Positions 14,352 through 40,910 of a stretch of 64,000 nt of DNA are shown piece after piece. A program made the translations under genes and the position numbers. A model generated the notes under the pieces. It was not told the DNA's origin. It did not search any database and was given only the letters and a program-made list of their open reading frames with translations. The first letter of the stretch is position 1. Each line of letters starts with the position of its first letter. This stretch comes from an uncultured Chloroflexia bacterium (GTDB taxonomy: Bacteria; Chloroflexota; Limnocylindria; Limnocylindrales; CSP1-4), in contig CAVRKH010000006.1 of assembly GCA_963721655.1 (NCBI GenBank), positions 151,986 to 215,985 on the forward strand, in the 5' to 3' direction.

Positions 14352-14376
14352 TCGAACGAACCCAGAGAGACCGCAC

Positions 14377-17109
<2,733 letters not shown>

Positions 17110-23305: not shown

Positions 23306-24409
23306 ATGGTGCGCTCGATAGACTCCGTGGCGATGCGCGACGTCGCGGTCTGGATCCTCCACCCGGAACCGGGTGCCGGCGCGGGCCCGCTCGAGCGGTG
23401 GGTCGCCGCCGAGCGGTCCCGGATCGCGGAGCGCCACCGCGACGGCTTTCTGCGCGCCGGCGCTGCGACGGCCCGGATCGTCTCCGGTCCGCCCGACGAT
23501 ACATCGTTCGGAGCGCGGCTCCGCGGGCTGGTCGAGGAGGCGCGACCCCGCCCGAGCGGGGCGATCGTGCTGGGCTCCGGCGCGGTTCCGCTGGCGACGA
23601 TCCGCGATCGGCGGTCCTTCGTTGCGACCGCTGCCGCGGCGACACCCACGGCGCTCGCCAACAACCGCTACTCGGCCGACGTCGTCTCGATCGCCTGCGT
23701 CGAATCGCTCCTCGCGCTGCCCGACCTGCCCGCCGACAACGCGCTCCCGCGCTGGCTGGAGGAGGTGGCCGGGTACCAGGTCGACGACCTGCGGCACCGA
23801 TGGCGGCTCGCGTTCGACGTCGACGGGCCACTCGACCTGCTGCTCATGGGTCGCGCGGGCGGTTCGGCCGCCGGCGACGTCGAAACGGCTCGGGCACGCC
23901 TCGGCGCCGTGGCGTCGGTCGCCGCCGATCGGCGGGCCGAGCTGGTCGTGGCGGGGCGCACGTCGGCCGCGACCCTGCGCTGGCTGGAGACAGCCGCCCA
24001 TGCACGCGTCCGCGCGCTTGTCGAGGAACGCGGCATGCGTGCAGCCAGCGTCCTTGCACAGGCCGGCGACCAGTCACGGCCCGGACGCGGCCCGGCGTCC
24101 GTGCTCGGCCTGCTCCTCGATCGTGACGGCCCGGCGTCCCTCGGCGGCCATCTCGAACGGCTGGGCGATGCCGCCGTGGTCGATAGCCGGGTGCTCCTCG
24201 CGCACCGGTTCGGTGCCGACGAGCGAGACTGGCCGCCTGCAGAGGACCGCTTCGCGTCGGACCTGCTGCTCCCCGACCGCGTCGCCGATCCGTGGCTGCG
24301 CGACCTGACCGCGTCGGTCGTGGGCGCGCGGATCCCGGTCGCACTCGGCGGGCACACGCTCGTGGGCGTGGGCCTGCGCCTCCTGCTTGGGAAGCGCCGA
24401 TGGACCTGA
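23306..24409 (+). CDS. conserved hypothetical protein
   Basis: The 3' two-thirds of ORF 22589-24409 have unbiased composition (VLGSGAVPLATIRDRR...NNRYSADVVSIACVESL...). The upstream part is antisense to folK, so I trimmed to ATG 23306. I recognise no family. Confidence 0.45.
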   Translation: MVRSIDSVAMRDVAVWILHPEPGAGAGPLERWVAAERSRIAERHRDGFLRAGAATARIVSGPPDDTSFGARLRGLVEEARPRPSGAIVLGSGAVPLATIRDRRSFVATAAAATPTALANNRYSADVVSIACVESLLALPDLPADNALPRWLEEVAGYQVDDLRHRWRLAFDVDGPLDLLLMGRAGGSAAGDVETARARLGAVASVAADRRAELVVAGRTSAATLRWLETAAHARVRALVEERGMRAASVLAQAGDQSRPGRGPASVLGLLLDRDGPASLGGHLERLGDAAVVDSRVLLAHRFGADERDWPPAEDRFASDLLLPDRVADPWLRDLTASVVGARIPVALGGHTLVGVGLRLLLGKRRWT

Positions 24410-25597
24410 GCGCGGGGCTGCGACGCGAGCCGCCCATCGATCTCGAGGAGGTCGGCGAGAACGAGGTCCTGGCTGCCCGGATCCGCGCGGAGATTGAAGC
24501 AGCCGGCCCGATGACGTTCGCGCGCTTCATGGAGCTCGCGCTGTACGACCCGGATGGCGGCTACTACCGCGGAGCGGAGCCGCGACCGGGGCGGAGCGGC
24601 GATTTCCTGACCGCACCCGAGGCGCACCCGATCTTCGGACAGGCGGTGGCCAACCAGCTGGTCGAGGTCTGGGAACGACTCGATCGCCCCGCGCCCTTCG
24701 TCGTCCGCGAACACGGAGCCGGCGCCGGGACCCTCGCCGAGGCCATCCTGCGCCGGCTCGAGCGGGCGCGGCCGGAGCTGCTTGCCGTCCTGCGCTACGT
24801 GCCCGTCGAGATCGATACGCGGCGCGTCGAAGCGTTCGGCGAGCGGCTGTCCGCGGCGGGCTTCGCGGACCGCATCGCGCCGGCGCGGCGACGATCGCCC
24901 GTTCACGGGTGTCGTGCTCGCGAACGAGGTCCTCGATGCGCTGCCCGTCCACCGCATTGGGGTCCGGGATGGCTCGCTGGCCGAACGCTTCGTGGCAGTG
25001 GGCGCCGACGGCCAACTGGTCGACGCCTGGGGCCCGCCCTCGACGGCGGCGCTCGGCGAACGGCTGCAGGCCGACGGCGTGCGGCTTGCCGAAGGCCAGT
25101 CGGGCGAGGTCTGCCTCGCGCTCGACCGCTGGATCGCGGATGCGGTGCAGTCGCTGGAGCGTGGTCTCCTGCTGCTGATCGATTACGGGGCCCTTGCCTC
25201 GGAGCTGTACGACGCCGTGCGGCGGCCGCAGGGCACGGTCCGCGCGTTCATCAGGCACCGCGTCAGCGACGATCTCTACGGCCACATCGGCCGCCAGGAC
25301 CTGACCGCGCACGTCGATCTGACGGCGCTGGGCGCAGCCGCGAGGGCCGTCGGGCTGGCGCCTGTCGGCGAGACCTCGCAGGCGGAGTTCCTGATCGGCA
25401 ACGGCGCGGAGGCCCTGCTGCAGGAGGTGCAGGCAGATCCGGAGACGACCCTCGCCGCTTATGTCGAGCTGCGATCCGCGTTGATGCGCCTCATCGACCC
25501 GGCCGGCATGGGCGGGTTCCGCGTGACGGCCTTCGGTCGTGCCTGGCCCGCCGGTCCGCCGCTCGCCGGGTTCGCGTACCGAGGACCGCGCCGCTGA
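24400..25597 (+). CDS. MidA/NDUFAF7-family (DUF185) SAM-dependent methyltransferase; frame broken by one extra base near 24886
   Basis: MTFARFMELALYDPDGGYYR...GDFLTAPE.HPIFG...EHGAGAGTLA, then in the +1 frame GDDRPFTGVVLANEVLDALPVHR...GEVCLALDRW...LLLIDYG...QDLTAHVDLT. 1198 nt equals 3n+1. Confidence 0.75.
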
Positions 25598-25845
25598 CGG
25601 GTGGACGCCACCGCAACCATCGGGACCGCACTACGGCACCTGCCCTATTGCGGAGCCCATCCGATGTTGCGACGCTCCCCTCGGTCGCTGCGACCACGGC
25701 TCGAGGAGCGGAGGGCGATCCCGGCACGCGCGCTCGACGCGCTCCGCTCCGGAGCCTTTTCCCACGGGCGCCAGACGCGCCTGAGGCCACCTGCCCGCCC
25801 GGCTTCCGGGCGCCCGCACCGGCCAGCAGCCCAACCGCGGCCCAC

Positions 25846-25854
25846 TGCTAGAAT
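25846..25854 (+). promoter_or_regulatory. extended -10 promoter candidate (TGcTAGAAT) upstream of nuoA
   Basis: TGCTAGAAT at 25846-25854, about 95 nt upstream of the nuoA TTG start. No good -35 element. Confidence 0.35.
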
Positions 25855-25949: not shown

Positions 25950-26306
25950 TTGGAAGCGCTCTGGTACATCTTGGGCTTCGCCTTCGCCGGGGTTTCCTTC
26001 GTGTTCCTGACGATCGGCGCGGCCTGGCTGGTTACGCACCGCAACCGGGGTGACGTCCACAAGGGCCTCCCGTACGAGTCGGGCATCGACACGTACGGCG
26101 ACACCCACGGCCGATTCGGCCTCTCCTTCTACATCTACGCACTGCTGTTCGTGGCGTTCGACATCGAGGTGGTCTTCATCTTCGTGTGGGCGCTCACGTT
26201 CAGGGAGTTGCTCCTCGGTGGGTTCGTCAGCATGCTGATCTTTGTCGTCGTCGTCCTGCTCGGGCTGTTCTATGCGGTCCGCAAGGGTGCCCTCACATGG
26301 CACTGA
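25950..26306 (+). CDS. nuoA: NADH-quinone oxidoreductase subunit A
   Basis: PYESGI...F...[18 protein letters not shown] motif. 118 aa, TTG start after GGGGAG. Confidence 0.85.
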
Positions 26307-27001
26307 GCGACAAGACGCCGGGCGCTGCGAGCGCCCTCGTCGTTCCGGAGCCGGCCGACGTCGTCGAGCCGCTCATCGTCCCCAACACCTTCTGGACCTC
26401 GAGCGCACCCGGCGCGTACGTGGGCGGCCACGAGCCCGACCACACGCACCTCGCGCAGCTCGAGACCGACGAGGCCTCGCGCCGCGACAACGCGCGCTGG
26501 AGCGGCCCGCTCGAGATCATCCCGACCAAGGCCGACTATGTCCTCGACCTGATCCGGATGAACTCGCTGTGGCCGCTGCTGTCCGGGCTGGCGTGCTGCG
26601 CGATCGAGATGATGTCGACCGCCACGTCGCGCAACGACCTCGACCGATGGGGCCACTTCCCGTTCCGCGCCAGCCCTCGCCAGGCCGACGTGCTGATCGT
26701 TGCCGGGACGCTGACCACGAAGATGGCCGGCCCGTTGATCCGGCTCTGGGAGCAGATGCCCGAGCCCAAGTGGTGCGTCGCGCTCGGCGACTGCACCTGC
26801 TCGGGTGGCCGCTACAAGCGCAGCTATTCGACCGTGGAGGGCATCGACCGGGTCATGCCGGTTGACGTCTACATCCCCGGCTGCCCGCCGCGGCCCGAGG
26901 GGCTGATGTACGGGATGATGAAGCTCCAGCAGCTCGTCAAGCAGCGCCGGGGCCACTGGCCGGAGCGGGCGATCGGGCCCACCGTTCCGCAGGACGTCTA
27001 G
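26297..27001 (+). CDS. nuoB: NADH-quinone oxidoreductase subunit B with an N-terminal extension of about 85 aa
   Basis: [44 protein letters not shown] and [12 protein letters not shown] (N2 cluster ligands). Confidence 0.9.
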
Positions 27002-27570
27002 TGGATCGACGCTTCAAGACGCGACTCGAAGCGCGCTTCGAGGATCGCCTGACCGGCCCGGTCCGGCAGCGCCATGACGAGACCGAGATCCGGATCCGGC
27101 CCGGCGACGTCGTGCCGGTCATGACCGAGCTCCACGACGATCCCGAGTTCCGCTTCGAGTTCCTCGCCGACCTTGCCGGCGTGGATACGGGCGAGGCGAT
27201 GCAAGCGGTCTACCACCTGTGGAGCGACACCACGCCGGACTGGCTGCGGGTGATCGTCGACGGCCTGTCGCGCGACGATCCGCGGGTCCCGTCGCTCACC
27301 TTCCTGTGGCCGGGCGCCGAGTGGATGGAGCGCGAGGCGTACGACATGTTCGGCATGATCTTCGAGGGCAACCGCGACCTCCGTCGGATCTACATGCCAC
27401 CCGAGTACACGAGCTTCCCGCTGCGCAAGGACTTCCACCTGCCGGACGACGCAGCCCGCTCGCCGGGTGCCGGCTCGCGCCACATGGAGCAGACGCACCT
27501 GCCGACGAACAACCCGAGCGCGGCTGTCCGCCGCCTGCCCGGCTCGCGGCAGCTGCCGGCGAAGCCATGA
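27001..27570 (+). CDS. nuoC: NADH-quinone oxidoreductase subunit C
   Basis: LADLAGVD...YHLWS and WPGAEWMEREAYDMFGMIFEGNRDLRRI. The GTG start overlaps the nuoB stop by 1 nt. Confidence 0.85.
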   Translation: MDRRFKTRLEARFEDRLTGPVRQRHDETEIRIRPGDVVPVMTELHDDPEFRFEFLADLAGVDTGEAMQAVYHLWSDTTPDWLRVIVDGLSRDDPRVPSLTFLWPGAEWMEREAYDMFGMIFEGNRDLRRIYMPPEYTSFPLRKDFHLPDDAARSPGAGSRHMEQTHLPTNNPSAAVRRLPGSRQLPAKP

Positions 27571-28784
27571 CGACGACCCAACGGCCGTCGGCCGACGATC
27601 CGCGCATCCTGCTCGACCAGGAGGCCGGCGTCTTCGAGCCCGTCCCGCCCTACCCGCCGCGAACCGAACGCGAGGCCGAGTTCTACACGCTCGGGGACGG
27701 CGAGATGTTCCTCAACATGGGGCCCCAGCATCCGTCGACCCACGGCGTGCTTCGGGTGGTGCTCAAGATCCAGGGCGAGAACGTCGTCGACCTCGACCCG
27801 GTCCTCGGCTATCTCCACCGTGGCGTCGAGAAGCTCGCCGAGAACGCCGACTACCACCAGGTCATCAGCCAGGTTGACCCGCTCGAATACGTCAGCTCGC
27901 TGTTCAACGAGTGGGGCGCGGTCCTGAGCTTCGAGAAGCTGCTCGACGTCGAGGTCCCGCGCCGCGCCGAGTACATCCGGGTGCTCTCCGCGGAGCTCAA
28001 CCGGATCGCCAGCCACTCCCTGTTCCTGGGCTGGATGGCGCTCGATCTCGGCGGCCTGACGCCGATCCTGTGGTCGTTCATCGAGCGAGACGAGATCGTC
28101 GAGATGCTCGCCTCGCTGACCGGCCAGCGGATGCTCTTCAACTATTTCCGCATCGGCGGCGTCAACGGCGACCTCAACCACGACTTCATGAGCCGGCTCG
28201 GCAACTGGATGAGCCACGCGACCGAGCAGATCGAGGCCGGCCAGGGCCTCCTGAACGAGAACGAGATCTTCGTCCGGCGGATGCGCGGCCTCGGTACGAT
28301 CGATACGGCGACGGCGCTGCGGATGTGCTTCACGGGGCCGAACCTGCGCGCCACCGGCGTCCCGTTCGACATCCGCCGCGCCCATCCGTACTCGGTCTAC
28401 CCCGAGCTCGACTTCGACATCCCGACCCGGGACGAGGGCGACAGCCTGGCGCGCTACCTGCTTCGGATGGAGGAGGTCAAGCAGAGCCTGCGGATCATCG
28501 ACCAGTGCTTGCACCAGATGCCGGATGGCCCGGTGATCGCCAAGCTGCCGCGCCTGCTTCGGCCCCGCCCCGGCCGTGCCTACGCGGCGGTCGAGAGCCC
28601 GCGCGGCCAGTACGCCACGTACGTCGTCAGCGACGGCACCGACCAACCCTTCCGGATGCAGAATCCATGATCCCTCGTACATTCATCTGCAGTCAGTTGG
28701 TCTGTTGATGAAGGGAATCTCATCGCAGACACGATGGCGATCATGGCGAGCCTCGACCCGATCATGGGCGGGGTCGACAAATGA
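27567..28784 (+). CDS. nuoD: NADH-quinone oxidoreductase subunit D; the C-terminus is disrupted by a +1 / -1 pair of frame changes at about 28659 and 28714
   Basis: NMGPQHPSTHGVLRVVL, GYLHRGVEKLAEN and RIGGV. The expected C-terminus PFRM-RIHDPSYIHLQSVGLLMKG-NLIADTMAIMASLDPIMGGVDK is recovered only by reading 28660-28716 in the +1 frame. The stop at 28782-28784 overlaps the nuoH ATG. Confidence 0.85.
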
Positions 28785-30142
28785 CGGTCGTTGGGAGGAC
28801 GTGGAGCCGGCTGACGCTGCCGGGGAAGGTCGTCTTCACGGTCGTTCCGCTGCTCGCGGTCCTGACGATCGCGGGCGCCTTCGCCATCGCGCTGGTCGCC
28901 CAACCGGTCATCGACATCATCGTGGCGAACCTGGCGATCGCGCGGTTCGTCGTGGCCGCCACGATCATCCTGCTCATGACAGTGCCGACGGCCTTCCTGA
29001 TCATCTACCTCGAGCTGAAGGTCATCGCCCAGATGAACCTGCGGATCGGCCCGGATCGCGTCGGGCCATTCGGCTCGCTGCTGTCGGTCGTGCCGGGCCT
29101 CAAGGTCCTGGCGAAGGAGGACTTCACCCCGACCGGCGCGGACGCGATCGTGTTCACGTGGGCGCCGGTCGTGGTCTACCTGACCAGCGTGATGACCCTG
29201 CTCGTCATCCCGTTCGCGCCGGACGGCGTGGTCGGCGCGAGCTTCAACCTGGGGCTGCTGTACTTCTTCGCGATCAGTGGGCTGTCGGTCGTCGGGCTGC
29301 TGATGGGCGGCTGGTCGAGCTTCAACAAGTACTCGCTGCTCGGCGGCCTGCGCTCGGCGGCGTCGGTCGTGAGCTACGAGATCCCGCTCGTGCTGTCCGT
29401 CGTGGGCGTGATCCTGATCGCCGGCACGATGGACCTGACGGTCATCGTCCGGAACCAGGCGGGCTGGTTCACCGACTGGTACATCTGGCAGCAGCCGCTG
29501 GCATTCCTCATCTTCTTCATCGCCGCGACCGCCGAAGCGAACCGCACCCCATTCGACCTGACCGAGGCGGACTCCGAGATCGTCGCCGGCTTCGCCACCG
29601 AGTACTCCGGGATGCGCTTCGGGTTCTTCTTCTTCGCCGAGTACGTGAACGTCTTCATCATCTCGGCCCTGATCGTGACGCTGTTCTTCGGCGGCTGGAA
29701 CGCGCCAATCGCGTGGCCCGCGGAGTGGGCGATCACCTTGTCGATCAATCCCGGGTCGCTCGGGATCGCCCTGCTGCTCATCGTGCTGATCGTCCCGCTC
29801 GTCCTGACGCTCGTGTTCGCGACGCCACTGTGGCTCATCAGCTCGCGCATCAAGACCTGGCAGGCGCTGCTCGGCGGCTTCGTGCTCGCCAACCTGTTCG
29901 TGATCGGGGTCATCTTCGGGATCGCCTACATCGGCCTCGCCTGGGTGGCCGGCCTGCTCTGGTTCCTCCTCAAGACGTACTTCTTCGTGTTCACCTTCGT
30001 GTGGATGCGTGGGACCCTGCCGCGTGTCCGCATCGACCAGCTGATGAACTTCGCCTGGAAGTGGTTGATGGAGCTCGCGTTCATCAACATCTTCGTGACG
30101 GCAGGCGCGATCATCCTCATCGAGTACCTGAGGCGCCCGTGA
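28781..30142 (+). CDS. nuoH: NADH-quinone oxidoreductase subunit H (long form, 453 aa)
   Basis: RIGPDRVGPFG, NKYSLLGGLRSAA..VSYEI, EANRTPFDL.EA.SEIVAGF.TEYSGMRF and VWMRGTLPRVRIDQLM. Confidence 0.9.
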   Translation: MTVVGRTWSRLTLPGKVVFTVVPLLAVLTIAGAFAIALVAQPVIDIIVANLAIARFVVAATIILLMTVPTAFLIIYLELKVIAQMNLRIGPDRVGPFGSLLSVVPGLKVLAKEDFTPTGADAIVFTWAPVVVYLTSVMTLLVIPFAPDGVVGASFNLGLLYFFAISGLSVVGLLMGGWSSFNKYSLLGGLRSAASVVSYEIPLVLSVVGVILIAGTMDLTVIVRNQAGWFTDWYIWQQPLAFLIFFIAATAEANRTPFDLTEADSEIVAGFATEYSGMRFGFFFFAEYVNVFIISALIVTLFFGGWNAPIAWPAEWAITLSINPGSLGIALLLIVLIVPLVLTLVFATPLWLISSRIKTWQALLGGFVLANLFVIGVIFGIAYIGLAWVAGLLWFLLKTYFFVFTFVWMRGTLPRVRIDQLMNFAWKWLMELAFINIFVTAGAIILIEYLRRP

Positions 30143-30813
30143 GCTTCGTACCTGGACTCGGCATCGTGAAGGGCATGGCGCTGACGCTGCGTCGCTTCTT
30201 CGAGCCGAAGGTGACGGTCAAGTACCCCGAGGAGCGGTACGTGGTCGCGCCGAAGTTCCGCGGACGGCTGCAGCTGCTGTACGACGAGTGGGGCACGCTC
30301 AAGTGCGAGACCTGCTTCCAGTGCGCCCAGGCGTGCCCGATCGAGTGCATCGACATGGGCGGCGTCGACTCGCGCGGTCGCTACCACGTCCACTGGGGTC
30401 CGCCCGAGACGTACGGGGAGCGGCGCGAGGAATCGGCGCTGCGCCGCTCGGGCCGGCCCGTCCCTGACGCGGCCTACCGCCATTTCCAGCCCGTCGACCT
30501 GGCCGCCGTCGACGAGATCCTCGACGACGTCGACTACGACCCGAAGCGGATGCTCGAGATCCTCGAGGCCACGCAGGGTGTCTACGGCTACCTGCCGGTC
30601 GCGGCGCTGAAGCGGATCAGCCAGAAGACCGGGGCGTGGTACGCGATGATCTACGGCACGGCCACGTACTACGGGCACCTCCGCTTCGAACCGGCCGAGG
30701 ACACGGAGCAGGCCGCTGCGATCGACCGGAACCGTCCACCCGAAGCGTCGTATGTCGCTGCGCTCGGGGCCTCACTTGCAGGCGTCCCGCGCGGCGCTCC
30801 GCCGGCGGCCTGA
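30139..30813 (+). CDS. hybrid Fe-S protein: NuoI-like N-terminal half (a single Cys motif) fused to a NuoE-like N-terminal helical segment
   Basis: LTLRRFFEPKVTVKYPEERYVVAPKFRGRLQL...CETCFQCAQACPIECI is NuoI-like, but no second CxxCxxCxxxCP motif is found in any frame. RMLEILEATQGVYGYLPVAALKRISQKTGAWYAMIYGTATYYGHLRF is NuoE-like, with no thioredoxin-like 2Fe-2S domain. The GTG start overlaps the nuoH stop (GTGA). Confidence 0.6.
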   Translation: MSFVPGLGIVKGMALTLRRFFEPKVTVKYPEERYVVAPKFRGRLQLLYDEWGTLKCETCFQCAQACPIECIDMGGVDSRGRYHVHWGPPETYGERREESALRRSGRPVPDAAYRHFQPVDLAAVDEILDDVDYDPKRMLEILEATQGVYGYLPVAALKRISQKTGAWYAMIYGTATYYGHLRFEPAEDTEQAAAIDRNRPPEASYVAALGASLAGVPRGAPPAA

Positions 30814-30815
30814 CC

Positions 30816-32153
30816 ATGGTCAACCGGCTGTCCACGCCGTCCGGCTGGCCGGCGATCCTGCTGGAGCGCGCCGACGCCCCGGATCCGACCGACCTCGATG
30901 CGGCCGTCGCCGCTGGTGCGTTCGAGGGCATGCGCCGCGCGATCCGCGATCTCGGCCCGACGGGCACGATCGCGACCGTTGCGGCGTCCGGGTTGCGCGG
31001 CCGGGGTGGCGCGGGCTTCCCGACGGGCGAGAAGTGGCGTGCCGCCGCGTCGGTCGAGGCACCCCGCCGGTATGTCGTCGCCAACGGCTATGGCGCAGAT
31101 CCCGCGACGTTCACCGATCGCGCGCTGCTCGAGCTCGACCCGTATTCGGTGGTCGAGGGGACCGCGATCGCGGCCTACGCGATCGGCGCGAGCGAGGCGT
31201 TCATCGCGGTCCGCGCGGAGCAGATCGAGGCCATCCGGCGCCTCGAGGCGGCCATCGCGGCCGCGGAGGAAGCCGGCTTTCTCGGCAGCGACGTGCACGG
31301 CTCCGGCCATGACATCGACGTGCGTCTTCGGCCGGTCCAGGGCGCGTACATGCTCGGCGAGGAGACCGTCCTGCTGAAGGCCCTTGAGGGGAAGCGCGGC
31401 CAGCCGGAGCAGCGTCCGCCGTATCCCACCGAGCGCGGCCTGTTCGACATGCCGACGGTCGTCCAGAACGTGCAGACGCTGGCCGCGATCCCGTGGATCG
31501 TGCGCAACGGGCCCGCGGCGTTCACCGCGATCGGCGGCAAGAGCAGCCCGGGCACGGTCCTCGTCCAGGTCCGCGGACCGGGTACCGAGGGCATCGCCGA
31601 GGTTCCGCTGGCCACGCCGCTTCGCGAGATCGTGGCCCTGGCCGGCAAGCTGCCGAGGGGCCGAAAGGTCAAGGCACTGCTCGTCGGCGGGCCGTCCGGG
31701 GGCCTGCTCCCGCCGGACCTGCTCGACACTCCCTACGACTTCGAGTCGCTGCGCGCGGCAGGGGCCCACCTCGGCTCCGGGTCGGTGGTGATCGCCGACG
31801 ACCGTGCGTGCGTCGTGGACCTCGCTCGCCTGCTGACCCGGTTCTGCTCGAGCGAAGCGTGCGGCAAGTCGATCCCGTGCCGCATCGGCACGCGCCGGAT
31901 CGCGGAGATCGGCGACCGGATCGTCGAAGGCCGGCCACGCCAGAACGACCTCGGCATCCTCGCCGACCTGTCGGCGGACATCGTCGGCTCCGCCCTGTGC
32001 GACCACGAGCGTCTTGCAACGCTTCCGTGGGGGAGCGGAATGCGATACTTCAGGGCAGAGCTCGACGATCATCTCCTCCGCAGCTCCTGCCCGGCGCGTG
32101 TCTGCCAGCCCATCAAGATCGCCGCCGGCAAGACCCCAGTGAAGGCATCCTGA
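30816..32153 (+). CDS. nuoF: NuoF-like NADH dehydrogenase flavoprotein subunit (variant N3 cluster motif)
   Basis: GLRGRGGAGFPTGEKW, GAYMLGEETVLLKALEGKRGQPEQRPPYPTERGLF and PTVVQNVQT. The cluster motif reads FCSSEACGKSIPCRIG rather than ESCGKCxPCR. Confidence 0.85.
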   Translation: MVNRLSTPSGWPAILLERADAPDPTDLDAAVAAGAFEGMRRAIRDLGPTGTIATVAASGLRGRGGAGFPTGEKWRAAASVEAPRRYVVANGYGADPATFTDRALLELDPYSVVEGTAIAAYAIGASEAFIAVRAEQIEAIRRLEAAIAAAEEAGFLGSDVHGSGHDIDVRLRPVQGAYMLGEETVLLKALEGKRGQPEQRPPYPTERGLFDMPTVVQNVQTLAAIPWIVRNGPAAFTAIGGKSSPGTVLVQVRGPGTEGIAEVPLATPLREIVALAGKLPRGRKVKALLVGGPSGGLLPPDLLDTPYDFESLRAAGAHLGSGSVVIADDRACVVDLARLLTRFCSSEACGKSIPCRIGTRRIAEIGDRIVEGRPRQNDLGILADLSADIVGSALCDHERLATLPWGSGMRYFRAELDDHLLRSSCPARVCQPIKIAAGKTPVKAS

Positions 32154-34800
32154 ATGGCAGACCTGATCACGCGCCCTGACAGCCGCCCCGATCGCGCACC
32201 TGCCGCGTCGCCCGAATCGCTTGCCGAGCGCCTGCTCGACACGCAGGCGCCGCAGCGTCCGCAGTCGACGCCGCGCATCCGGATCGAGGTGGACGGGCGA
32301 GTCGTGGAGGGCTTCGAGGGCCAGACGATCCTCGAGGTCTGCCGCGACAACGGGATCGAGATCCCGACGCTGTGCTACGAGCCGAAGCTGCCCGGGTTCG
32401 GTGCCTGCCGGATGTGCGTCGTCGAGGTCGAGGGCGAGGAGCACCCGCCGATCAGCTGCTCCCGGACGTGCGAGCCGGGCATGAAGGTCGAGACGCAGAC
32501 CGACGAGATCCGTCGGTTGCGCCGCACGAACCTCGAGCTGATCTTCAGCGACCACAACGCGTACTGCCTGCCGCCGTGCCAGAACAAGTGCCCGAGCCAC
32601 ATCGACATCCCGGGCTTCCTCAAGGCCAACGCCGAGGCGGACTGGCGCGAGTCGACGCGCATCTTCAAGCGCACGATCCCCTTCCCCAGCGTGCTCGGCC
32701 GGGTGTGCCCCGCCCCGTGCGAGGAGCACTGCCGCCGGGACGAGGTCGACGAGGCGATCGCGATCCGCGACAGCCACCGCTACGCGGGCGACCAGGTGAT
32801 CATGTCGATGCTCGACGAGGGCGTCGATCCGCCGCTCCCGTACGAGCGCCAGGCGCCGACCGGCCGCAAGGCGGCGGTGATCGGATCAGGTCCTGCCGGC
32901 ATGGCCGCCGCCTACTACCTGCTGCTCGCGGGCCACGAGGTGACGGTCTTCGAGCGCGACCCGGCGCCCGGAGGGATGCTCCGCTACGGCATTCCCGCAG
33001 TACCGGCTGCCGAAGGTCGAGGTGCTCGAGGCCGAGTACGAATCGGTCACGCGGCTGGGCGGCACGGTCGTGTGCGATGCGGGCCTCGGACGGGACTTCA
33101 CCCTCGACGACCTGACCAACCAGGGCTTCGGCGCCGTCCTCGTGGCGATCGGCTGCTACGAAGTGAACAAGCTCGGAGTCCCCGGCGAGGACGCGGCCGA
33201 GGTGCTCGACGGCCTCGAGTACCTGCGGACCGCGACGCTCGGGCTGCCGTACCCGGAGCACGCCGGCAAGCGCGTCGTCGTCATCGGCGGCGGGTTCACC
33301 TCGATGGACTGCTCGCGGACCTCGGTCCGCCAGGGCGCCGCCGAGGTGACGCTCGTGTACCGCCGCGACATGAAGGACATGCCCGCTGCCAACGAAGTGC
33401 ACGAGGCGATCGAGGAAGGTGTGACCACCATCTTCCAGGCGGGCCCGGTACGCGTCGTCACCGACAAGGCCGGCAACGTGACCGGCGTCGAGTTCATCCG
33501 GATGCGCCCGGGCGAGCCCGATGCCTCGGGCCGGCGCCGGCCCGAGCCCGCCCCGGGGACCGAGTTCACGATCCCCTGCGATCGTGTCCTGCTCGCGATC
33601 GGCCAGGGGCCGGAGCTCGACTGGATCGAGCAGCCCGGCAACGAGGGCGTGACCGCGAAGCGCGCCAGGCTGGCCGCCGACGCGGTGACGTTCGAGACCG
33701 GCCGGACCGGCGTGTTCGGCACCGGGGACGTGCGGATCGGTGCCGCGACGGTGGTCCAGGCAATCGCCGAGGGCCGGCGCGCCGCGTACGCGGTCGACGC
33801 CCACCTTCGCGGGCTCGACCTGTCGGCGATCCGCACGCGCCAGACGCTCGCCGAACCGCAGCCCGAGTTCCTGTCGATCGTGCCCTTCACGAGCGAGGTG
33901 AAGGAATCGCGCTACCGGATGACGGCGATGCCCGCCGAGGTCCGCAACCAGAGCTACGTCGAGTACGAGCTGCCGTACACGCCCGAGGCCGCGATGGCCG
34001 AATCGACGCGCTGCCTGCAGTGCACGTGCGAGGCGATCGGCTTCTGCGACCTGCGCCGGCTCGGCATCGAGTACGGCACGACGCTCAAGACGCTCGAGCC
34101 GCAGTACCACCAGGGCGCCGGCTACCGCAGCGTCACCGAGAACCGCTTCACCGGCACGAACCACGACTACATCCGCGACGACTCCCACGCGTTCATCCTG
34201 CGCGAGCCGTCGCGCTGCATCGACTGCGGGCGCTGCGCCAACGTGTGCGCCGAGGTCGTCGGGGCCGCCTGCTACGACTTCATGCGGATCGGCTTCGACA
34301 CGCTCGTGACGACACCGCTCGACATGAGCCTCAACGACACCCCGTGCGTGTCGTGCGGCCGCTGCGCCGAGACGTGCCCGACCGGGGCGCTGATGCCGAA
34401 GCCGCGCGTGCTCGAGAAGTACGAGGTCGACGAGAGCCGCTGCATCCTGTGCGGCATCTGCGTCGACGCGTGCCCGTACGACGCGCTCCGCGACGGCGCC
34501 GACATCGAGCTCGCCCAGACCAGCCGCGAGGAGCCGATGATCGACCTCATGGCGATCGCGGCGATCGACCGCGAGACCGAGGTGACCTACATCCGGCGCG
34601 AGGCCGACTGGGCGACGCGGGCCGCAGCCGAGGGCCGCATCATCGACGCCGGGCGGCTGCTGCCGGTGCTCCCGGCGACGACCACCGGCCTGCCGTCGGG
34701 GAACGGCCATGGCGCCAACGGCAACGGCCACGCGGCGCTGGGCAGCGGACACGGAAACGGCGGGCATGGCGCCGGCGGCGGCCACGCCCACCCGAAGTAG
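32154..34800 (+). CDS. multidomain Fe-S flavoprotein: NuoG-type 2Fe-2S domain + GltD-like NAD(P)H:FAD oxidoreductase module + NuoG/HydA-type 4Fe-4S domains + His/Gly-rich tail; frame broken by one extra base near 32997
   Basis: - Fer2 domain: IEVDGRVVEGFEGQTILEVC...PTLCYEPKLPGFGACRMCVVEV.
- GltD N-terminal region: CLPPCQNKCPSHIDIPGFLK...FPSVLGRVCPAPCEEHC.
- Dinucleotide motifs: AAVIGSGPAGMAAAYYL and VVVIGGGFTSMDC.
- Cys motifs: CIDCGRCANVC, CVSCGRCAETCP and CILCGICVDACP.
- The length of 2647 nt equals 3n+1.
- No molybdopterin-like domain is present. Confidence 0.75.
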
Positions 34801-34802
34801 CC

Positions 34803-35402
34803 ATGCTCCGCAAGCTCGTGCCGATCCTGATCGCGGCCGCGATCCTCGGCATGGTCACCGGTATCGCCGCGTTGATGATCGTGCTGCTGGGGCAGGACTG
34901 GGAGGACGCCCTCCTGTGGCTGCTGTCGGCGGTGATGATCGGCTCGGCGCTGCTCGTCGTGACGATGCGCGACATCATCCGCTGCGGCCTCGCGATGATC
35001 GTGTGCTTCGGGGCCCTCGCCGGGATCTACGTGCTCCTCGGGGCACCGCTCATCGGCGCCGCGCAGGTGATCGTGTACATCGGCGCGATCAGCGTGCTGA
35101 TCCTGTTCGCGATCATGCTCACCCAGACCAAGGACGCGCCGCGCGTGCTGGTCTTCCAGACCCAGTCGGCAGCGGCGGCCGTTGCCTCGATCATCATCGC
35201 AGTCCTCCTGGCGCTGTCGATCACGGCGACGGACTGGGGTGAGCTGCCGGCGCGAGTCCGGCTCGCGACGAACGAGCTGTCGCGCATCCTGTTCACCGAC
35301 GCAGGCAACCTGCTCCCGTTCGAGGTGATCGGGGTGCTGCTGCTGGCGGCCGTGATCGGCGGCGTGTACCTGGCAAAGCGCGAGCCGGGCGGACCGGCGT
35401 GA
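34803..35402 (+). CDS. nuoJ: NADH-quinone oxidoreductase subunit J
   Basis: [27 protein letters not shown] and [17 protein letters not shown]. Confidence 0.85.
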
Positions 35403-35725
35403 GCAATTCGCTCGACGCCTACCTGATCCTGTCGACGCTCCTCTTCTCGATCGGCACGTTCGGGTTCCTCGCCCGGCGGAACGCGATCAGCATGCTCATG
35501 TCGATCGAGCTCATGCTCAACGCGGTCAACCTGGCGATCGTCGCCTTCGCCGCGTTCGGGGCGTTCGGAGCGACGCCCGAGGGCGTGTCGCGCGGGTCCG
35601 TGATCGCACTGATGGTCATCTCGGTCGCTGCGGCCGAGGCGACGGTCGGCCTCGCGATCATCATCGCCATCTACCGGAACCGGCGAACGCCGCTCGTTGA
35701 CGAGTACGACTCCATGCGCCAATGA
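35399..35725 (+). CDS. nuoK: NADH-quinone oxidoreductase subunit K
   Basis: [32 protein letters not shown]...[12 protein letters not shown]. The GTG start overlaps the nuoJ stop. Confidence 0.9.
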
Positions 35726-35766
35726 GCGAGCGCGGCTCACGCGTCGGCAGGCAAGGCTGATCGACG

Positions 35767-37752
35767 TTGGACACGCTGATCCCCCTCATCCCGGTCCTGC
35801 CGTTTGCAGGCTTCGCGATCACCGCCCTGATCGGTCGGCGGCTGGGCAAGCAGGCGCACTGGATCCCGGTCCTCGCCGTCTTCGCGGCGTGGGTCATCTC
35901 GATGCTCGCGTCGTATTACGTGCTGAGCGGTGCGGCGCCGCTGGCCGCGGGCTCCGAGGACCTGCACGCGTACGTCGTGCCCATCTACGAGTGGATCCCG
36001 GCCGGCGCGTTCCAGGTCGAGGTCGGGTTCTTCGTCGACCCGCTGACCGCCTGCCTCCTGATCGTCGTCACGACGATCGGCCTGCTGGTGCACATCTACT
36101 CGATCGGGTACATGGGCCACGACCCGGGGTACTGGCGCTTCTTCGCGTACCTGAACCTGTTCATGTTCTCGATGCTCCTGCTGGTCCTCGCGGACAGCTG
36201 GCTGGTCGTGTTCGTGGCCTGGGAGCTGGTCGGCCTGTGCAGCTACCTGCTGATCGGCTTCTGGTTCCGCAGGCACTCGGCGGCCCTCGCCGCCAAGAAG
36301 GCGTTCCTGGTGAACCGCGTGGGCGACGTCGGCTTCGCGCTCGGGATCATGGCGATCTTCGCGACCACGCTCGCGATCGGTGAGCCGACGCTCAACATTC
36401 GCGCGTCGATCGAGCTCCTGACCGTTCACGCTGCCGATCTGACGATCCCGATCACGGTCATCGCGCTGCTCATCCTGGCCGGCGCGATGGGCAAGAGCGC
36501 CCAGTTCCCGCTCCACGTGTGGCTGCCCGACGCGATGGAAGGCCCGACCCCGGTGTCGGCGCTGATCCACGCGGCGACGATGGTCAACGCCGGCGTCTAC
36601 CTGGTGGCCCGGGCGAACCTGTTGTTCGCCGGCGCCCCGAGCGCGATGGTCATCGTGGCCGCCATCGGCATCTTCACGGCCATCCTCGCGGCGACGATCG
36701 CGATGACCCAGACCGACATCAAGCGCGTGCTCGCCTATTCGACGCTCAGCCAGCTCGGCTACATGTTCGCGGCGCTCGGCGTCGGCGCGTTTACCGCGGC
36801 GATCTTCCACCTCATGACCCACGGCTTCTTCAAGGGCCTGCTGTTCCTCGGCTCCGGCTCGGTCATCCACTCGGTCGAGGACGAGCAGGACATGCGCCAG
36901 ATGGGCGGGCTGTCGAAGAAGATCCCGATCACGTACGTGACGATGCTGATCGGGTCGTTCGCCATCGCGGGCATCCCGCCACTGGCCGGGTTCTTCTCGA
37001 AGGACGAAGTCCTCGGCGAGGCCTACAAGCTCGGCTTCTACTGGGTCTGGGGGATCGGCCTGTTCGTCGCCCTGCTGACGGCGTTCTACATGTTCCGGCT
37101 CATGGGCCTGACCTTCTGGGGTGACTTCCGTGGCCCGCGGGAGCTGTGGGACAGGATCCACGAGTCGCCGAGGATCATGACGATCCCGCTGATCCTGCTC
37201 GCCATTCCGTCGGTGTTCCTCGGCCTGCTGCTCGGCTTGCCCCTGGGCGACAGCACGATCCACCAGTGGCTCGCGCCGGTGTTCCAGGAGGCCGAGGAGC
37301 TGCTCGCCCTTCCGGAGGCCCAGTACCAGCTGTTCGGCATCGACGGCGTGCTCATCGTCGCGAGCGTGGCCGTCGCGTCCGTCGGCGTTGCGCTTGCCTG
37401 GCGGTTCTTCGGCGTCGACATCGGCCCCGTGCGGCTGTCCAGCCGCCCCGAGGCTGTCCGGAGCATGACCGCCCGGGTGCCGTTCCTGTACCGCGCATCG
37501 CTCAACAAGTGGTGGTTCGACGACCTCTATCACCTGCTGTTCATCGTGATCGGCGGGCGGATCGCCGCGTTCCTGTGGTGGTTCGACCGTGAGGTCGTCG
37601 ATGGGACCGTCAACGGCATCGGCAGACTGACCGTCGGGGCAGGCCGTGAGCTGCGCCTGGTGCAGACGGGTCGGGTCCAGAACTACGCGCTCGGGATCGC
37701 CTTCGGGCTGATCGTGATGGCCGGCTCGTACCTGATCCTGGCGGGCCGCTGA
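35767..37752 (+). CDS. nuoL: NADH-quinone oxidoreductase subunit L
   Basis: WELVGLCSYLLIGFW, GKSAQFPLHVWLPDAMEGPTPVSALIHAATMV and a long C-terminal amphipathic region. 661 aa. Confidence 0.9.
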   Translation: MDTLIPLIPVLPFAGFAITALIGRRLGKQAHWIPVLAVFAAWVISMLASYYVLSGAAPLAAGSEDLHAYVVPIYEWIPAGAFQVEVGFFVDPLTACLLIVVTTIGLLVHIYSIGYMGHDPGYWRFFAYLNLFMFSMLLLVLADSWLVVFVAWELVGLCSYLLIGFWFRRHSAALAAKKAFLVNRVGDVGFALGIMAIFATTLAIGEPTLNIRASIELLTVHAADLTIPITVIALLILAGAMGKSAQFPLHVWLPDAMEGPTPVSALIHAATMVNAGVYLVARANLLFAGAPSAMVIVAAIGIFTAILAATIAMTQTDIKRVLAYSTLSQLGYMFAALGVGAFTAAIFHLMTHGFFKGLLFLGSGSVIHSVEDEQDMRQMGGLSKKIPITYVTMLIGSFAIAGIPPLAGFFSKDEVLGEAYKLGFYWVWGIGLFVALLTAFYMFRLMGLTFWGDFRGPRELWDRIHESPRIMTIPLILLAIPSVFLGLLLGLPLGDSTIHQWLAPVFQEAEELLALPEAQYQLFGIDGVLIVASVAVASVGVALAWRFFGVDIGPVRLSSRPEAVRSMTARVPFLYRASLNKWWFDDLYHLLFIVIGGRIAAFLWWFDREVVDGTVNGIGRLTVGAGRELRLVQTGRVQNYALGIAFGLIVMAGSYLILAGR

Positions 37753-37754
37753 CG

Positions 37755-39414
37755 ATGAACGTCACCGACATCCCGATCCTGTCGATCCTGATCTTCCTGC
37801 CGCTGCTCGGCTCGATCGTGCTGGCCGTCCTGCCGACGACGATGACGCGCCCCGTGGCACTCGGCACGGCGCTGCTGACGTGGGTGGTGTCCCTGCTCCT
37901 GCTGGTCGGCTACGCGCCGACCTCGCCGGGCTTCCAGTACACGGAGACGCTCGACTGGATCCCGCTGTTCGGGATCCAGTACAAGCTCGGCGTCGACGGG
38001 GTGTCGGCGGCGCTCGTCGTCCTCACGACGACCCTGACCTGGATCTCGATCCTCGCGAGCTTCGTCCCGATCCAGACCCGGATCAAGGAGTACATGGTCT
38101 CGTTCCTCGTGCTCGAGCTCGGCATGCTCGGCGTGTTCCTGGCACTGGACCTGTTCCTGTTCTACATCTTCTGGGAGATCGTCCTCGTCCCGATGTACCT
38201 GATCATCGGGATCTGGGGCGGATCGAACCGGATCTACGCCACGATCAAGTTCGTCCTGTACACCCTCGTCGGGTCGCTGCTGATGCTCGTGGCGATCCTC
38301 GCCACCGCGTTCGCCTACCAGTCCGCGACCGGCAGCTGGGTGAACGCCTTCGACTACGAGACGCTGCGCGCCTTCGCGCTCGACCCGGCCGGCGGGTTCG
38401 CGCCGGAGCTCCAGGTCGCCGCGTTCATCGCGTTCTTCCTGGCGTTCGCGATCAAGGTCCCGATGTTCCCGTTCCATACGTGGCTGCCCGACGCGCACAC
38501 CGAGGCGCCAACGGCCGGCTCGGTGATCCTCGCCGGCGTCATGCTCAAGCTCGGCGGCTACGGTCTGCTGCGGTTCGCCATCCCGCTGTTCCCCGACGCG
38601 GCACAGACGTTCGCGCCGGTGGTCATCGCGCTGTCGCTGATCGGGATCATCTACGGCGCGATCGTCGCCCTGGTCCAACCGGACCTCAAGCGCCTCGTCG
38701 CCTACTCGTCGGTCAGCCACATGGGCTTCGTCACGCTCGGCCTGTTCGTGTTCAACGAGCAGGGCGTGCAGGGCGCGATCCTCCAGATGATCAACCACGG
38801 CCTGATCACGGGCGCCCTGTTCCTGCTCGTCGGCGTGATCTACGAGCGGACCCACGACCGGACGATCTCGAAGATGGGCGGGCTCGCCGCGCTGATGCCT
38901 GTCTACGTGCTGACGTTCGGCTTCTTCGCGTTCGCGTCGGCCGGGCTGCCGGGCCTCAGCGGCTTCGTCGGGGAGTTCCTGACGCTCGTCGGCGCGTTCG
39001 TCGCCAACCCGTGGGTCGCGGCGATCGCGGCGTTCGTGATGATCCTCGGGGCCGCGTACCTGCTGTGGATGTTCCAGCGCATCGCCTTCGGCGAGGTCTC
39101 GCCGTTCTTCCGTGACCTCGGGCACCACCTGACCGACATGACGCCCGATCGAGGTGGCGACCCTCGTGCCGCTTGCCGGGCTCGTGGTCGCCTTCGGCCT
39201 GTTCCCGGGCCTCCTGCTCGACCTGATCCCGCTGACCGTCGCCGCCACGGTCGAGAGCGCGGACGCCGGCCAGGTGATCGCGATCCCGACCGAGATCGTG
39301 CTGGCGGCCCTCGGCCTGCTCCTGGCCTTCGTCGTCGGCCGGATCGTGTACGTCGCGGTTCTCGACCACGAGCCGGCGGCCGAGCCGGCGCGGGGCGCGG
39401 GTGGGGCCGGATGA
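37755..39414 (+). CDS. nuoM: NADH-quinone oxidoreductase subunit M; frame broken by one extra base near 39147
   Basis: FYIFWEIVLVPMYLIIGIWGG and KVPMFPFHTWLPDAHTEAPTAGSVILAGV. The C-terminus (IEVATLVPLAGLVVAFGLFPGLLLDL...) is in the +1 frame. 1660 nt equals 3n+1. The stop overlaps the nuoN ATG (ATGA). Confidence 0.85.
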
Positions 39415-40910
39415 CGTTCCAGGAGCTCACCACCGTCGCACCCTTCGTTGCCGCTGTTCTCACGGCAATCGCGATCATGCTCGTGGACCTGGCCTGGCCG
39501 AACCGGTCCGCGCTCGCGGTCGGCACCGCCCTGATCGGGCTGGCCATCACGGCCGGGCTGGTCATCCTCGTCGGCGGCTCCGGCACCACCGCCCAGTTCG
39601 CGTTCGGCGGCACCTACGAAGTGGACGCCCTCACCACGTTCCTCCAGTTGCTGCTGATCGGCGTGGTCGCACTGTCGATCGTGTTCGGTCCGGATTACCT
39701 CGGGCCGCGCAACCTGCCGACCGCCGAGTTCGCAACCGTGCTCGTGTTCGCGCTCACGGGCGCGATGTTGATCGCCGCCTCGGCCGACCTGCTGATCCTG
39801 TTCATCGCCCTCGAGCTGATGGTGCTGCCCGGGTACCTGCTGGCGGCCTACCACAAGTCCGACGCCTACTCGACCGAGGGCGCGATCAAGTACTTCCTGC
39901 TGGGCTCGTTCAGCTCGGCCATCTTCCTGTTCGGCCTTGCGTTCGTGTGGGGCATGACGGGCACCACCAGCACGGCCGGGGTGGCCGAGGCGCTCAGCGC
40001 GATCGTGGCCGGGTCGAGCGAGCTGTCGCCGGGGCTGGCGATGGGCCTCGCGCTGATGACGACCGGCGTCGCGTTCAAGATCGCCGCGGTGCCGTTCCAC
40101 TACTGGACGCCGGACGCCTACCAGGGCTCGCCGACACCGGTGACCGGCTACCTGTCGGTGGGCCCGAAGGTCGGCGCGTTCGCGCTGATCCTGCGGCTGT
40201 TTGCCGACGGGCTCTACCCGCTGGCCGAGTGGTGGCTCCCGGTCATCCTCGTGCTCTCGACGCTGACCATGACGCTCGGCAATCTCGTCGCCCTGACCCA
40301 GGACAACGTCAAGCGGATGCTGGGGTACAGCTCGATCGCGCACACCGGCTACATGCTGGTCGGGCTCGCGGCCTACGCGGCAGGCGAGCTGCAGGGCCTC
40401 GAAGGGCTCCTCTACTACACCGCGGCGTACGCCGCGATGAACCTCGGGGCGTTCGCCGTCGTCGCGGCGCTCCAGAAGCGGTCAGGCGTGACCTCGCAGC
40501 TCGAGACGTTCGCAGGCCTCGGCAGGCGCGAGCCGCTGCTCGGCGGCCTGATGGTGCTGTTCCTGCTGTCGCTGATCGGAATCCCGCCGACGGCCGGCTT
40601 CTTTGCCAAGGCCTACGTGATCATCGCCGCGGTCGAGGTGGGCGGACCGCTCACGATTCTGGCCGTGATCATGGTCATCAACGCCGCGATCGCTGCCTTC
40701 TACTACCTGCGCGTCGTCGTGTACATGTACATGCGCGAGCCGCGTACCGAGCAGGCGCCACTCCGCCACGGCCGCCTGCTGTGGTCCGGGCTGGCGGTCA
40801 CCACCGTGCTCGTGATCGTGCTCGGATTGTTTCCCACGACCGTCTTCGAGGCGGTGAGCGAGGCAGCGCAGGCGCTGCCGCCGATCGAGGTCACGCAGGC
40901 GTCGAACTGA
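39411..40910 (+). CDS. nuoN: NADH-quinone oxidoreductase subunit N
   Basis: LELMVLPGYLLAAY, FKIAAVPFHYWTPDAYQGSPTPVTGYLSVGPK and MLGYSSIAHTGYML. Confidence 0.9.
   Translation: MTFQELTTVAPFVAAVLTAIAIMLVDLAWPNRSALAVGTALIGLAITAGLVILVGGSGTTAQFAFGGTYEVDALTTFLQLLLIGVVALSIVFGPDYLGPRNLPTAEFATVLVFALTGAMLIAASADLLILFIALELMVLPGYLLAAYHKSDAYSTEGAIKYFLLGSFSSAIFLFGLAFVWGMTGTTSTAGVAEALSAIVAGSSELSPGLAMGLALMTTGVAFKIAAVPFHYWTPDAYQGSPTPVTGYLSVGPKVGAFALILRLFADGLYPLAEWWLPVILVLSTLTMTLGNLVALTQDNVKRMLGYSSIAHTGYMLVGLAAYAAGELQGLEGLLYYTAAYAAMNLGAFAVVAALQKRSGVTSQLETFAGLGRREPLLGGLMVLFLLSLIGIPPTAGFFAKAYVIIAAVEVGGPLTILAVIMVINAAIAAFYYLRVVVYMYMREPRTEQAPLRHGRLLWSGLAVTTVLVIVLGLFPTTVFEAVSEAAQALPPIEVTQASN

Follow-up and report, generated by a model that had tools for sequence, protein, structure and literature searches.

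Which electron donor feeds a complex I whose operon carries other proteins in place of its usual NADH-input subunits? The question is raised by a 64,000-nucleotide (nt) stretch of DNA from an uncultured Chloroflexia bacterium (Limnocylindria; Limnocylindrales; CSP1-4; GCA_963721655.1, CAVRKH010000006.1, positions 151,986-215,985), hereafter the window. We studied window positions 25,950-40,910, in which all genes lie on the + strand and follow the order nuoA-B-C-D-H-[NuoI N-half::NuoE-like helical domain]-[NuoF-like F']-[2Fe2S–GltD–FeS G']-J-K-L-M-N; the fusion of the NuoI half and the helical domain is called I'E' below. An earlier account drawn from the letters of the window (the sequence-only reading) had proposed this order, and both Pfam matches and the loci of relatives bear it out. 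Our analysis indicates that a three-gene module of the Bfu lineage sits inside nuoI of a complex I operon, and that the product is probably a non-bifurcating, proton-pumping NAD(P)H:quinone oxidoreductase, which NADPH would enter at a GltD-type flavin adenine dinucleotide (FAD) site.

The window has a G+C content of ~70%, and its raw lists of open reading frames (ORFs) are full of spurious or over-long frames. By reading all three forward frames, we found four 1-nt indels in the operon: an insertion at 28659 and a deletion near 28716 in nuoD, an insertion near 32993-32996 in G', and another near 39146 in nuoM. These are errors private to this assembly and not biology, because none of them occurs in any relative that aligns across the sites (64/64, 42/42 and, for nuoD, 49/49). 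The ORFs 32154-35402 (1082 amino acids) and 37755-40910 (1051 amino acids) are accordingly frameshift artefacts in DNA of 70% G+C. The closest relatives are long-read metagenome-assembled genomes (MAGs). Three of the four operon indels sit in short homopolymer runs, and a further single-base indel lies within 24187-25851. The pattern is that of long-read assembly error, and other ORF calls in the window need caution. The possibility that the locus is a pseudogene or an assembly artefact was ruled out, since the frameshifts are private to the window.

We then asked how widely the arrangement is kept. The I'E' fusion has 2953 database homologues, and the best 120 clusters are all ~225 amino acids long and 77-94% identical. 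When one genome per GTDB species was scanned, at least 476 loci proved to encode an I'E' relative; the 80 best of them were fetched and come from MAGs labelled Candidatus Limnocylindria/Limnocylindrales or generically Chloroflexota/Chloroflexia. As far as the contigs reach, the order A-B-C-D-H-I'E'-F'-G'-J-K-L-M-N is kept in 80/80 of the fetched loci, so that the synteny noted in the window recurs in related genomes. Operon proteins are 75-98% conserved across these loci, with G' the highest (82-96%), and the cofactor motifs of I'E', F' and G' are invariant (59-81 sequences aligned per protein). Neither canonical nuoE/F/G nor a second nuo operon was found in the 64-kb window or in the fetched flanks (±10 kb) of the related loci. 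In Candidatus Limnocylindria (Chloroflexota), this complex I (NDH-1) operon is genuine and conserved.

The module itself consists of I'E' (224 amino acids, 30139..30813), F' (445 amino acids, 30816..32153) and G' (32154..34800; 881 amino acids after removal of the one private inserted base). G' is a subunit of the StnC/NfnA type and matches, collinearly, both subunit A of the Nfn-ABC enzyme of Caldicellulosiruptor saccharolyticus (9bov_A, E 7e-153) and StnC (8oh5_C residues 3-701 of 1172, E 9e-140). It begins with an N1b-type [2Fe-2S] domain (residues 41-116, 32274..32501; Pfam Fer2_4, E 9e-21). A GltD/NfnB-type module follows (32565..33813; Pfam Fer4_20 and Pyr_redox_2), with two [4Fe-4S] motifs, the FAD site GSGPAG and the NADPH site GGGFTSMD…YRR. 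Next comes a NuoG/HydA-type Fe-S region (34012..34404; Pfam Fer4_Nqo3 and Fer4_7), in which CLQCTCx5C precedes CIDCGRCANVC…CVSCGRCAETCP. The FAD and NADPH motifs are canonical when aligned with StnC, NfnA and GltD, and they are invariant in 59 homologues. The Fe-S cysteine motifs are invariant as well, giving one [2Fe-2S] and five predicted [4Fe-4S] clusters. In topology, G' is StnC without the FdhF-like domain, ending instead in a NuoI C-half and a tail. Databases label it 'FAD-dependent oxidoreductase' or 'formate dehydrogenase major subunit'. We also ran AlphaFold on a full-length G' homologue with 30 close relatives; the mean predicted local distance difference test (pLDDT) value was 35, and the model was discarded.

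Could G' nevertheless be a standard NuoG? This identity was ruled out, because no molybdopterin domain was matched in G' by Pfam and the best alignment is to StnC/NfnA. The sequence-only reading had seen no NuoG with the large molybdopterin-like domain in the operon, and the Hidden Markov Model (HMM) profiles agree with it, finding Fer2_4, Fer4_20, Pyr_redox_2, Fer4_Nqo3 and Fer4 in G'.

F' corresponds to the NuoF/BfuB core only (Pfam Complex1_51K and NADH_4Fe-4S). It is closest to NfnB, StnB and HydB (E ~1e-108), compared with 1e-75 to 1e-90 for NuoF, and it aligns to residues 105-526 of the 584 of StnB/NfnB. Its cluster cysteines C344, C349, C355 and C395 are spaced Cx4Cx5Cx39C; the second N3 cysteine is lost and a new upstream one is gained. 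In I'E', the NuoI N-half is followed by a conserved linker and then by an N-terminal helical domain of the NuoE/NfnC/StnA kind (residues 117-187, 30487..30699). In sequence this domain is closest to NfnC and StnA (9bov_C, E 3e-12), and its best Foldseek match, 9bp5_C, superposes with a root-mean-square deviation of 1.0 Å over 66 columns. AlphaFold2 modelled it at pLDDT 80-97. It covers only positions 2-64 of the 145 of Pfam 2Fe-2S_thioredx; I'E' has a single ferredoxin cysteine motif, no cysteine beyond residue 70 and no thioredoxin-like [2Fe-2S] domain, so a canonical NuoE is missing, as had been noted from the letters. Judged by these sequence and fold matches, the homology of the middle proteins I'E', F' and G' is with the Bfu family (Nfn-ABC/StnABC) rather than with canonical NuoEFG. 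At the level of homology, then, the earlier comparison with Bfu/Stn enzymes was correct: G', F' and the helical domain all find their best matches among Nfn-ABC/Stn subunits.

What has become of NuoI? The N-half of I'E' (residues 9-76, 30163..30366) carries the single motif CETCFQCAQACP and matches NuoI/TYKY over their N-terminal halves, as far as the first CxxCxxCxxxCP motif. The second halves are matched by the final conserved segment of G' (residues ~751-815, 34405..34599), and this match takes in the NuoI-specific residues that follow the motif. Polyferredoxin repeats outscore NuoI against the G' tail, only by matching the motif many times. In matches to TYKY/NuoI structures in the PDB, the N-half scored 49 bits and the C-half 50 bits, whereas a chimera joined in silico scored 93 bits as one domain (E 1e-25). 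The NCBIfam NuoI model TIGR01971 (121 positions) gave the same picture: I'E' covers positions 1-64 and the G' tail 44-116, at 54.5 bits each, and the chimera covers 1-116 at 106 bits, under the cut-off of 113. The cysteines of both halves are all invariant in the homologue alignments. No single polypeptide of the operon holds both CxxCxxCxxxCP motifs; one is on I'E' and the other at the C-terminus of G'.

These alignments indicate that NuoI is split rather than halved, its first half being fused to the helical domain in I'E' and its second half ending G'. The earlier remark that the operon has no two-cluster NuoI thus holds for a single polypeptide, but the half that seemed to be missing is the C-terminus of the GltD protein. 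The gene layout nuoI(N)::E' / F' / G'::nuoI(C) is what would be expected from the in-frame insertion of three genes into nuoI. Each cluster of a 2x[4Fe-4S] ferredoxin fold is held by three cysteines of one motif and a single cysteine of the other motif. We infer that the two halves pair, and by this rule of the fold the clusters N6a and N6b of the reassembled domain would each be ligated by two polypeptides. AlphaFold2 placed the N-half of I'E' below pLDDT 50 when modelled alone, which is consistent with a half-domain in need of a partner and is not proof of one.

The same joint bears on the view that we are dealing with a mis-assembled or decaying operon, or with a soluble Stn-like enzyme encoded beside an 11-subunit ferredoxin-type NDH-1. 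Four frameshifts in 15 kb of the window would fit decay, but they are private to the window, and the conservation of the proteins and of their cofactor motifs across the 80 loci described above speaks against it. As for two enzymes, in every variant that we retrieved the module's first and last proteins carry the NuoI halves as covalent fusions, and an 11-subunit enzyme without the module would therefore have no functional NuoI. We give this view next to no weight.

The closest solved relatives of the module are all bifurcating enzymes, and the sequence-only reading had supposed that the complex might couple NADH, NADPH and ferredoxin chemistry. We took the features that define bifurcating Bfu/Stn enzymes from PMC9304861 and PMC10482914. 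StnC combines a [2Fe-2S] domain, an inserted GltD module, NuoG-type clusters and an FdhF-like domain (PMC10482914), and homologues that do not bifurcate are without clusters B2-B5 (Schut et al. 2022, PMC9304861). Using Pfam and alignments, we searched the module for the bifurcation-linked domains, namely the NuoE-type and HydB-type [2Fe-2S] domains, the C-terminal 2x[4Fe-4S] ferredoxin-like domain of the B subunit and the FdhF-like domain, and all were absent. With the defining features of bifurcating Bfu/Stn enzymes all lacking, bifurcation is disfavoured.

A membrane-bound bifurcating or confurcating 'Nuo-Bfu/Stn' hybrid that couples NADH, NADPH and ferredoxin to quinone reduction is thus very unlikely in our view. 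It could claim, besides the ancestry of the module, that Nuo-Bfu complexes have been predicted (PMC9304861) and that F' retains the H…CPxxC hinge motif, which follows the core as in StnB. Set against this are the loss of the small-subunit [2Fe-2S] cluster and of the N-terminal [2Fe-2S] and C-terminal 2x[4Fe-4S] ferredoxin-binding domains of the B subunit, the very domains that define the bifurcating members, and the report of an aerobic host lineage in soil and freshwater (PMC6776052). Of the earlier suggestion, the use of NADPH remains plausible, given the canonical and invariant GltD FAD/NADPH motifs, whereas the three-way coupling of NADH, NADPH and ferredoxin does not fit a module that is devoid of those domains.

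Next, we examined whether the module occurs in other forms. A search over 1.84 billion cluster representatives retrieved divergent I(N)::E fusions at 31-47% identity, whose contexts show the same split design. In each of four divergent variants (L082, L083/L087, L085 and L086), the module lies between fusions of the NuoI N-half and C-half, and organism names, where the sources give them, are Chloroflexota/Limnocylindria. L082 (Logan SRR22388304, 49% G+C) encodes nuoH, I(N) fused to a full NuoE with its cysteines, a protein of 1048 amino acids that joins a thioredoxin-like [2Fe-2S] domain, canonical NuoF and GltD, a short NuoG with I(C) (265 amino acids), and nuoJ-N. In its segment 2076-6023, NuoF bears the thioredoxin-like domain at the N-terminus and GltD at the C-terminus, and the mini-NuoG keeps the canonical His-ligated N5 motif. 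L083/L087 (59% G+C; L087 is JGI 3300031749) carries nuoA-D, H, I(N) fused to a full NuoE, F and G'::I(C). L086, from the Chloroflexi MAG GCA_016190715.1 (54% G+C), carries nuoA-D, H, I'E', F and G'::I(C). In both L086 and L087 the operon ends after G' and nuoJ-N are not adjacent; a flavin reductase and a pyruvate:ferredoxin oxidoreductase are among the next genes in L086. L085 (8228-15441 of JBGGHH010000003.1, GCA_041643075.1, 68% G+C) runs NuoB2-NuoD2-I'E'2-F2-G2::I(C) and then a methyltransferase. It is a paralogous cluster of the peripheral arm only, without nuoA, C, H or J-N within 10 kb, and its I'E' family carries Limnocylindria/Chloroflexota names. The methyltransferase gene after G2 (14338-15441) belongs to Methyltransf_28. 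We considered whether NuoD2 might be a [NiFe]-hydrogenase-type large subunit and ruled this out, as it has no CxxC Ni-Fe motifs.

The variants bear directly on which nucleotide the enzyme would use. In F' the flavin mononucleotide (FMN) site is altered in 69/69 homologues: NADEGDPG has become NGYGADP, GAGAY has become VQGAY and NVET has become (H/Q/N)NVQT. Four variants whose GltD NADPH motif is canonical show N[AG]Y[GD]AD at the NADEGDPG position of F. L083, L085 and L086, each with that canonical motif, share the Asp-to-Tyr change of F'. In L082 the situation is reversed: F is canonical (NAEEGEPG), and the NADPH Rossmann motif of GltD is degenerate (GPVALA; SKE for YRR). This complementary degeneracy (n=5) suggests that each complex has a single nucleotide site that works, and NADPH is therefore favoured as the main donor of the window enzyme.

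A dual-donor complex I would read the same proteins differently. NADH would be oxidised at an FMN in F' and NADPH at the FAD in G', both feeding a common wire to quinone, so that the enzyme would also be a built-in transhydrogenase. F' does keep its fold, the GLRGRGG loop, K73, N90, Y178, E182-E183, N218, T221 and four invariant cluster cysteines. It still reaches 373 bits on the NuoF model TIGR01959, under the cut-off of 558, and in StnABC one equivalent Fe-S wire joins FAD and FMN (PMC10482914). On the other hand, all three FMN-site motifs are changed, invariantly in Limnocylindria, the changes recur in divergent variants, and in L082, where F is canonical, it is the GltD NADPH site that is degenerate. 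An ungated short-circuit between NADH and NADPH would, moreover, collapse redox pools that are normally separate. We regard a dual donor as less likely than NADPH entry, but as a serious alternative.

In the non-bifurcating NADPH-entry enzyme that we favour, the two NuoI halves would reassemble as a 2x[4Fe-4S] domain carrying N6a and N6b and dock the module on NuoB/C/D. NADPH would be oxidised at the GltD FAD, and the electrons would travel down the G' chain of Fe-S clusters, cross N6a/N6b and reach quinone by way of N2 in NuoB, while the canonical membrane arm would pump protons. No bifurcation is expected, since the domains that make Bfu enzymes bifurcate appear to have been stripped off. 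F' keeps its fold, glycine loop and four-cysteine cluster around a remodelled flavin/nicotinamide pocket, and we lean to NADPH as the main donor. The same machine might instead run in reverse, with electron flow from quinol driven by the proton-motive force making NADPH for biosynthesis while the cells grow or persist on high-potential donors such as H2 or CO. Complex I is reversible, and an NADP-specific tip would feed reductant straight into anabolism; the sequence, however, carries no sign of directionality and the neighbouring genes are housekeeping ones, and we consider this improbable.

Several observations weigh against forward, NADPH-driven respiration as we propose it. The pocket residues of F' are invariant (69/69), which indicates that the site is under selection and is not decaying, and the site may still bind FMN and NADH. 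The presumed preference of the GltD site for NADPH over NADH is deduced from motif retention only, and the complementary degeneracy was seen in five loci only. The L085 cluster, being without membrane subunits, suggests that module and membrane arm may be tied to each other less firmly than a single operon implies. A broader proposal, which we advance only tentatively, is that these operons represent a distinct class of complex I in several Chloroflexota lineages, defined by a module spliced into nuoI, by N6a and N6b held between two polypeptides and by NADPH as donor through the GltD FAD.

How does the predicted enzyme compare with known systems? With Nfn-ABC of C. saccharolyticus (9bov/9bp5) and StnABC of Sporomusa ovata (8oh5; PMC10482914) it shares three homologous subunits, a large subunit in the order [2Fe-2S], inserted GltD (FAD, NADPH and two 4Fe-4S) and NuoG/HydA-type 4Fe-4S clusters, and a B-type core and small-subunit helical domain that are the best matches in sequence and fold. 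It differs from them in having neither the FdhF-like C-terminal domain, which is the tetramer core in Stn, nor the thioredoxin-like [2Fe-2S] domains and the ferredoxin-type C-terminal domain of the B subunit, and in its changed FMN-site motif. The module is also embedded in a nuo operon with NuoI halves fused at both ends, and the window enzyme is predicted to reduce quinone, whereas Nfn-ABC and StnABC reduce NAD+ and ferredoxin.

Like the canonical 14-subunit complex I (Thermus thermophilus Nqo1-14, E. coli NuoA-N), the operon encodes full NuoB, C and D together with A, H and J-N, and NuoB has its N2 motifs; the logic of flavin, Fe-S wire, N6a/N6b, N2 and quinone would be the same. Unlike in the canonical operon, the input genes come after nuoH, inside nuoI, and not between nuoD and nuoH. 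The NuoE relative is without N1a, the NuoG relative has a GltD flavoprotein and no molybdopterin-like domain, NuoI lies on two polypeptides, and F' falls under the NuoF family cut-off. The enzyme differs also from the 11-subunit ferredoxin-type NDH-1, which has no NuoE/F/G and an intact NuoI entry, in having the three module proteins, with NuoI divided between them.

Alternative input modules are a known theme for complex I. 'Nuo-Bfu' complexes have been predicted in Geobacter, Deferribacteres, Planctomycetes and Nitrospirae, and 'Nfn-Bfu' enzymes classified (Schut et al. 2022, PMC9304861). As here, Bfu-family subunits replace NuoEFG in the Nuo-Bfu complexes and are encoded in the middle of the nuo cluster; those complexes occur in other lineages, in 14-gene nuo clusters, retain the whole bifurcating BfuBC core (B2-B5) and have no GltD/NADP module, and a split NuoI is not mentioned in PMC9304861. 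In Mbx-like operons of Thermotoga and others, GltD-like proteins take the place of NuoI (Degli Esposti 2015, PMC4758237), so that a GltD-type NAD(P)H flavoprotein likewise stands at the NuoI position of a complex-I-related membrane enzyme. These enzymes are of the Mrp/Mbx type without NuoF/NuoG-like subunits, whereas the window enzyme is fully Nuo-type and retains NuoI in split form. E. coli complex I engineered with NuoF Glu183 variants oxidises NADPH. It too is a proton-pumping, NADPH-accepting complex; there a point mutation in NuoF suffices, and here a separate FAD/NADPH domain would serve. A GltD-bearing module on a Nuo-type complex, a split NuoI and the Limnocylindria enzyme are all absent from PMC9304861 and PMC4758237. 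Our literature search, which left most subscription journals outside its reach, found no description of this architecture, of a split NuoI or of the Limnocylindria enzyme.

Complex I is a textbook case of modular evolution, and here the joint between modules is visible in the genes, with an Nfn/Stn-type module in frame within the ferredoxin subunit. It is also a rare case in which a 2x[4Fe-4S] ferredoxin fold is predicted to assemble from two chains. To learn which features let the Bfu core bifurcate, one could turn to this family for naturally occurring relatives of Nfn-ABC/Stn that are predicted not to bifurcate. Should NADPH be the donor, bacteria that abound in soil and freshwater could use it directly for energy-conserving respiration, and their redox balance and maintenance energy would need different modelling. 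The enzyme would then be the first natural NADPH-specific proton-pumping complex I, and the chief gateway to respiration in a class of soil bacteria that ranks among the most abundant uncultured ones. Annotation may also be affected. Many Chloroflexi genomes with 13/14 complex I genes, 'missing only NuoG', were scored as without complex I (Spero et al. 2015, PMC4453560); given the generic annotation of G', operons like that of the window may explain some of these calls. For Thermomicrobium roseum, the complex I genes given in PMC6776052 are nuoA-E,H-N, a list that lacks F and G. This species may carry a related operon and could serve as a cultured model. A tblastn search of a plasmid collection, in which its megaplasmid is presumably included and which leaves its chromosome out, gave nothing relevant.

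The ten ordinary subunits were all confirmed by strong Pfam matches, so that the Q-module and the membrane arm are complete. The first five are nuoA (25950..26306; Oxidored_q4, E 6e-29), nuoB (26297..27001; Oxidored_q6, E 1e-27), with N2 cluster motifs readable in the translation, nuoC (27001..27570; Complex1_30kDa, E 1e-36), nuoD (27567..28784; Complex1_49kDa, E 1e-69), whose two private indels compensate each other, and nuoH (28781..30142; NADHdh, E 2e-103). Downstream of the module lie nuoJ (34803..35402; Oxidored_q3), nuoK (35399..35725; Oxidored_q2), nuoL (35767..37752; Proton_antipo_N and Proton_antipo_M), nuoM (37755..39414; Proton_antipo_M), with its one private inserted base, and nuoN (39411..40910; Proton_antipo_M). 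NuoB (234 amino acids) has an N-terminal extension of ~75 residues. NuoH (453 amino acids) runs ~100 residues beyond the typical bacterial length, and its Pfam match falls into two stretches.

Almost every junction had been described from the letters as an overlap of 1-4 nt. Six are of this kind, at B/C (1 nt), C/D (4), D/H (4, ATGA), H/I'E' (4, GTGA), J/K (4) and M/N (4), but A/B overlaps by 10 nt and five junctions are gapped: I'E'/F' by 2 nt, F'/G' by 0, G'/J by 2, K/L by ~41 and L/M by 2. Just before nuoJ, G' ends in a low-complexity His/Gly-rich tail with GNGH-type repeats (window ~34680-34797). A comparable His-rich tail is present in 54/59 G' homologues, its sequence not being conserved, and a role in metal binding or assembly is possible.

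The flanks of the operon in the window hold housekeeping genes. Directly upstream of nuoA lies a Methyltransf_28 gene (PF02636; 24187-25851, + strand), whose window copy is frameshifted. A copy was detected in 58 of the related loci; nuoA was matched in 66 loci, and in 59 of these the upstream sequence is long enough to hold the gene. PF02636 also includes NDUFAF7/MidA, an assembly factor of mitochondrial complex I. NDUFAF7 modifies NDUFS2, and by analogy the product of the upstream gene may modify NuoD.

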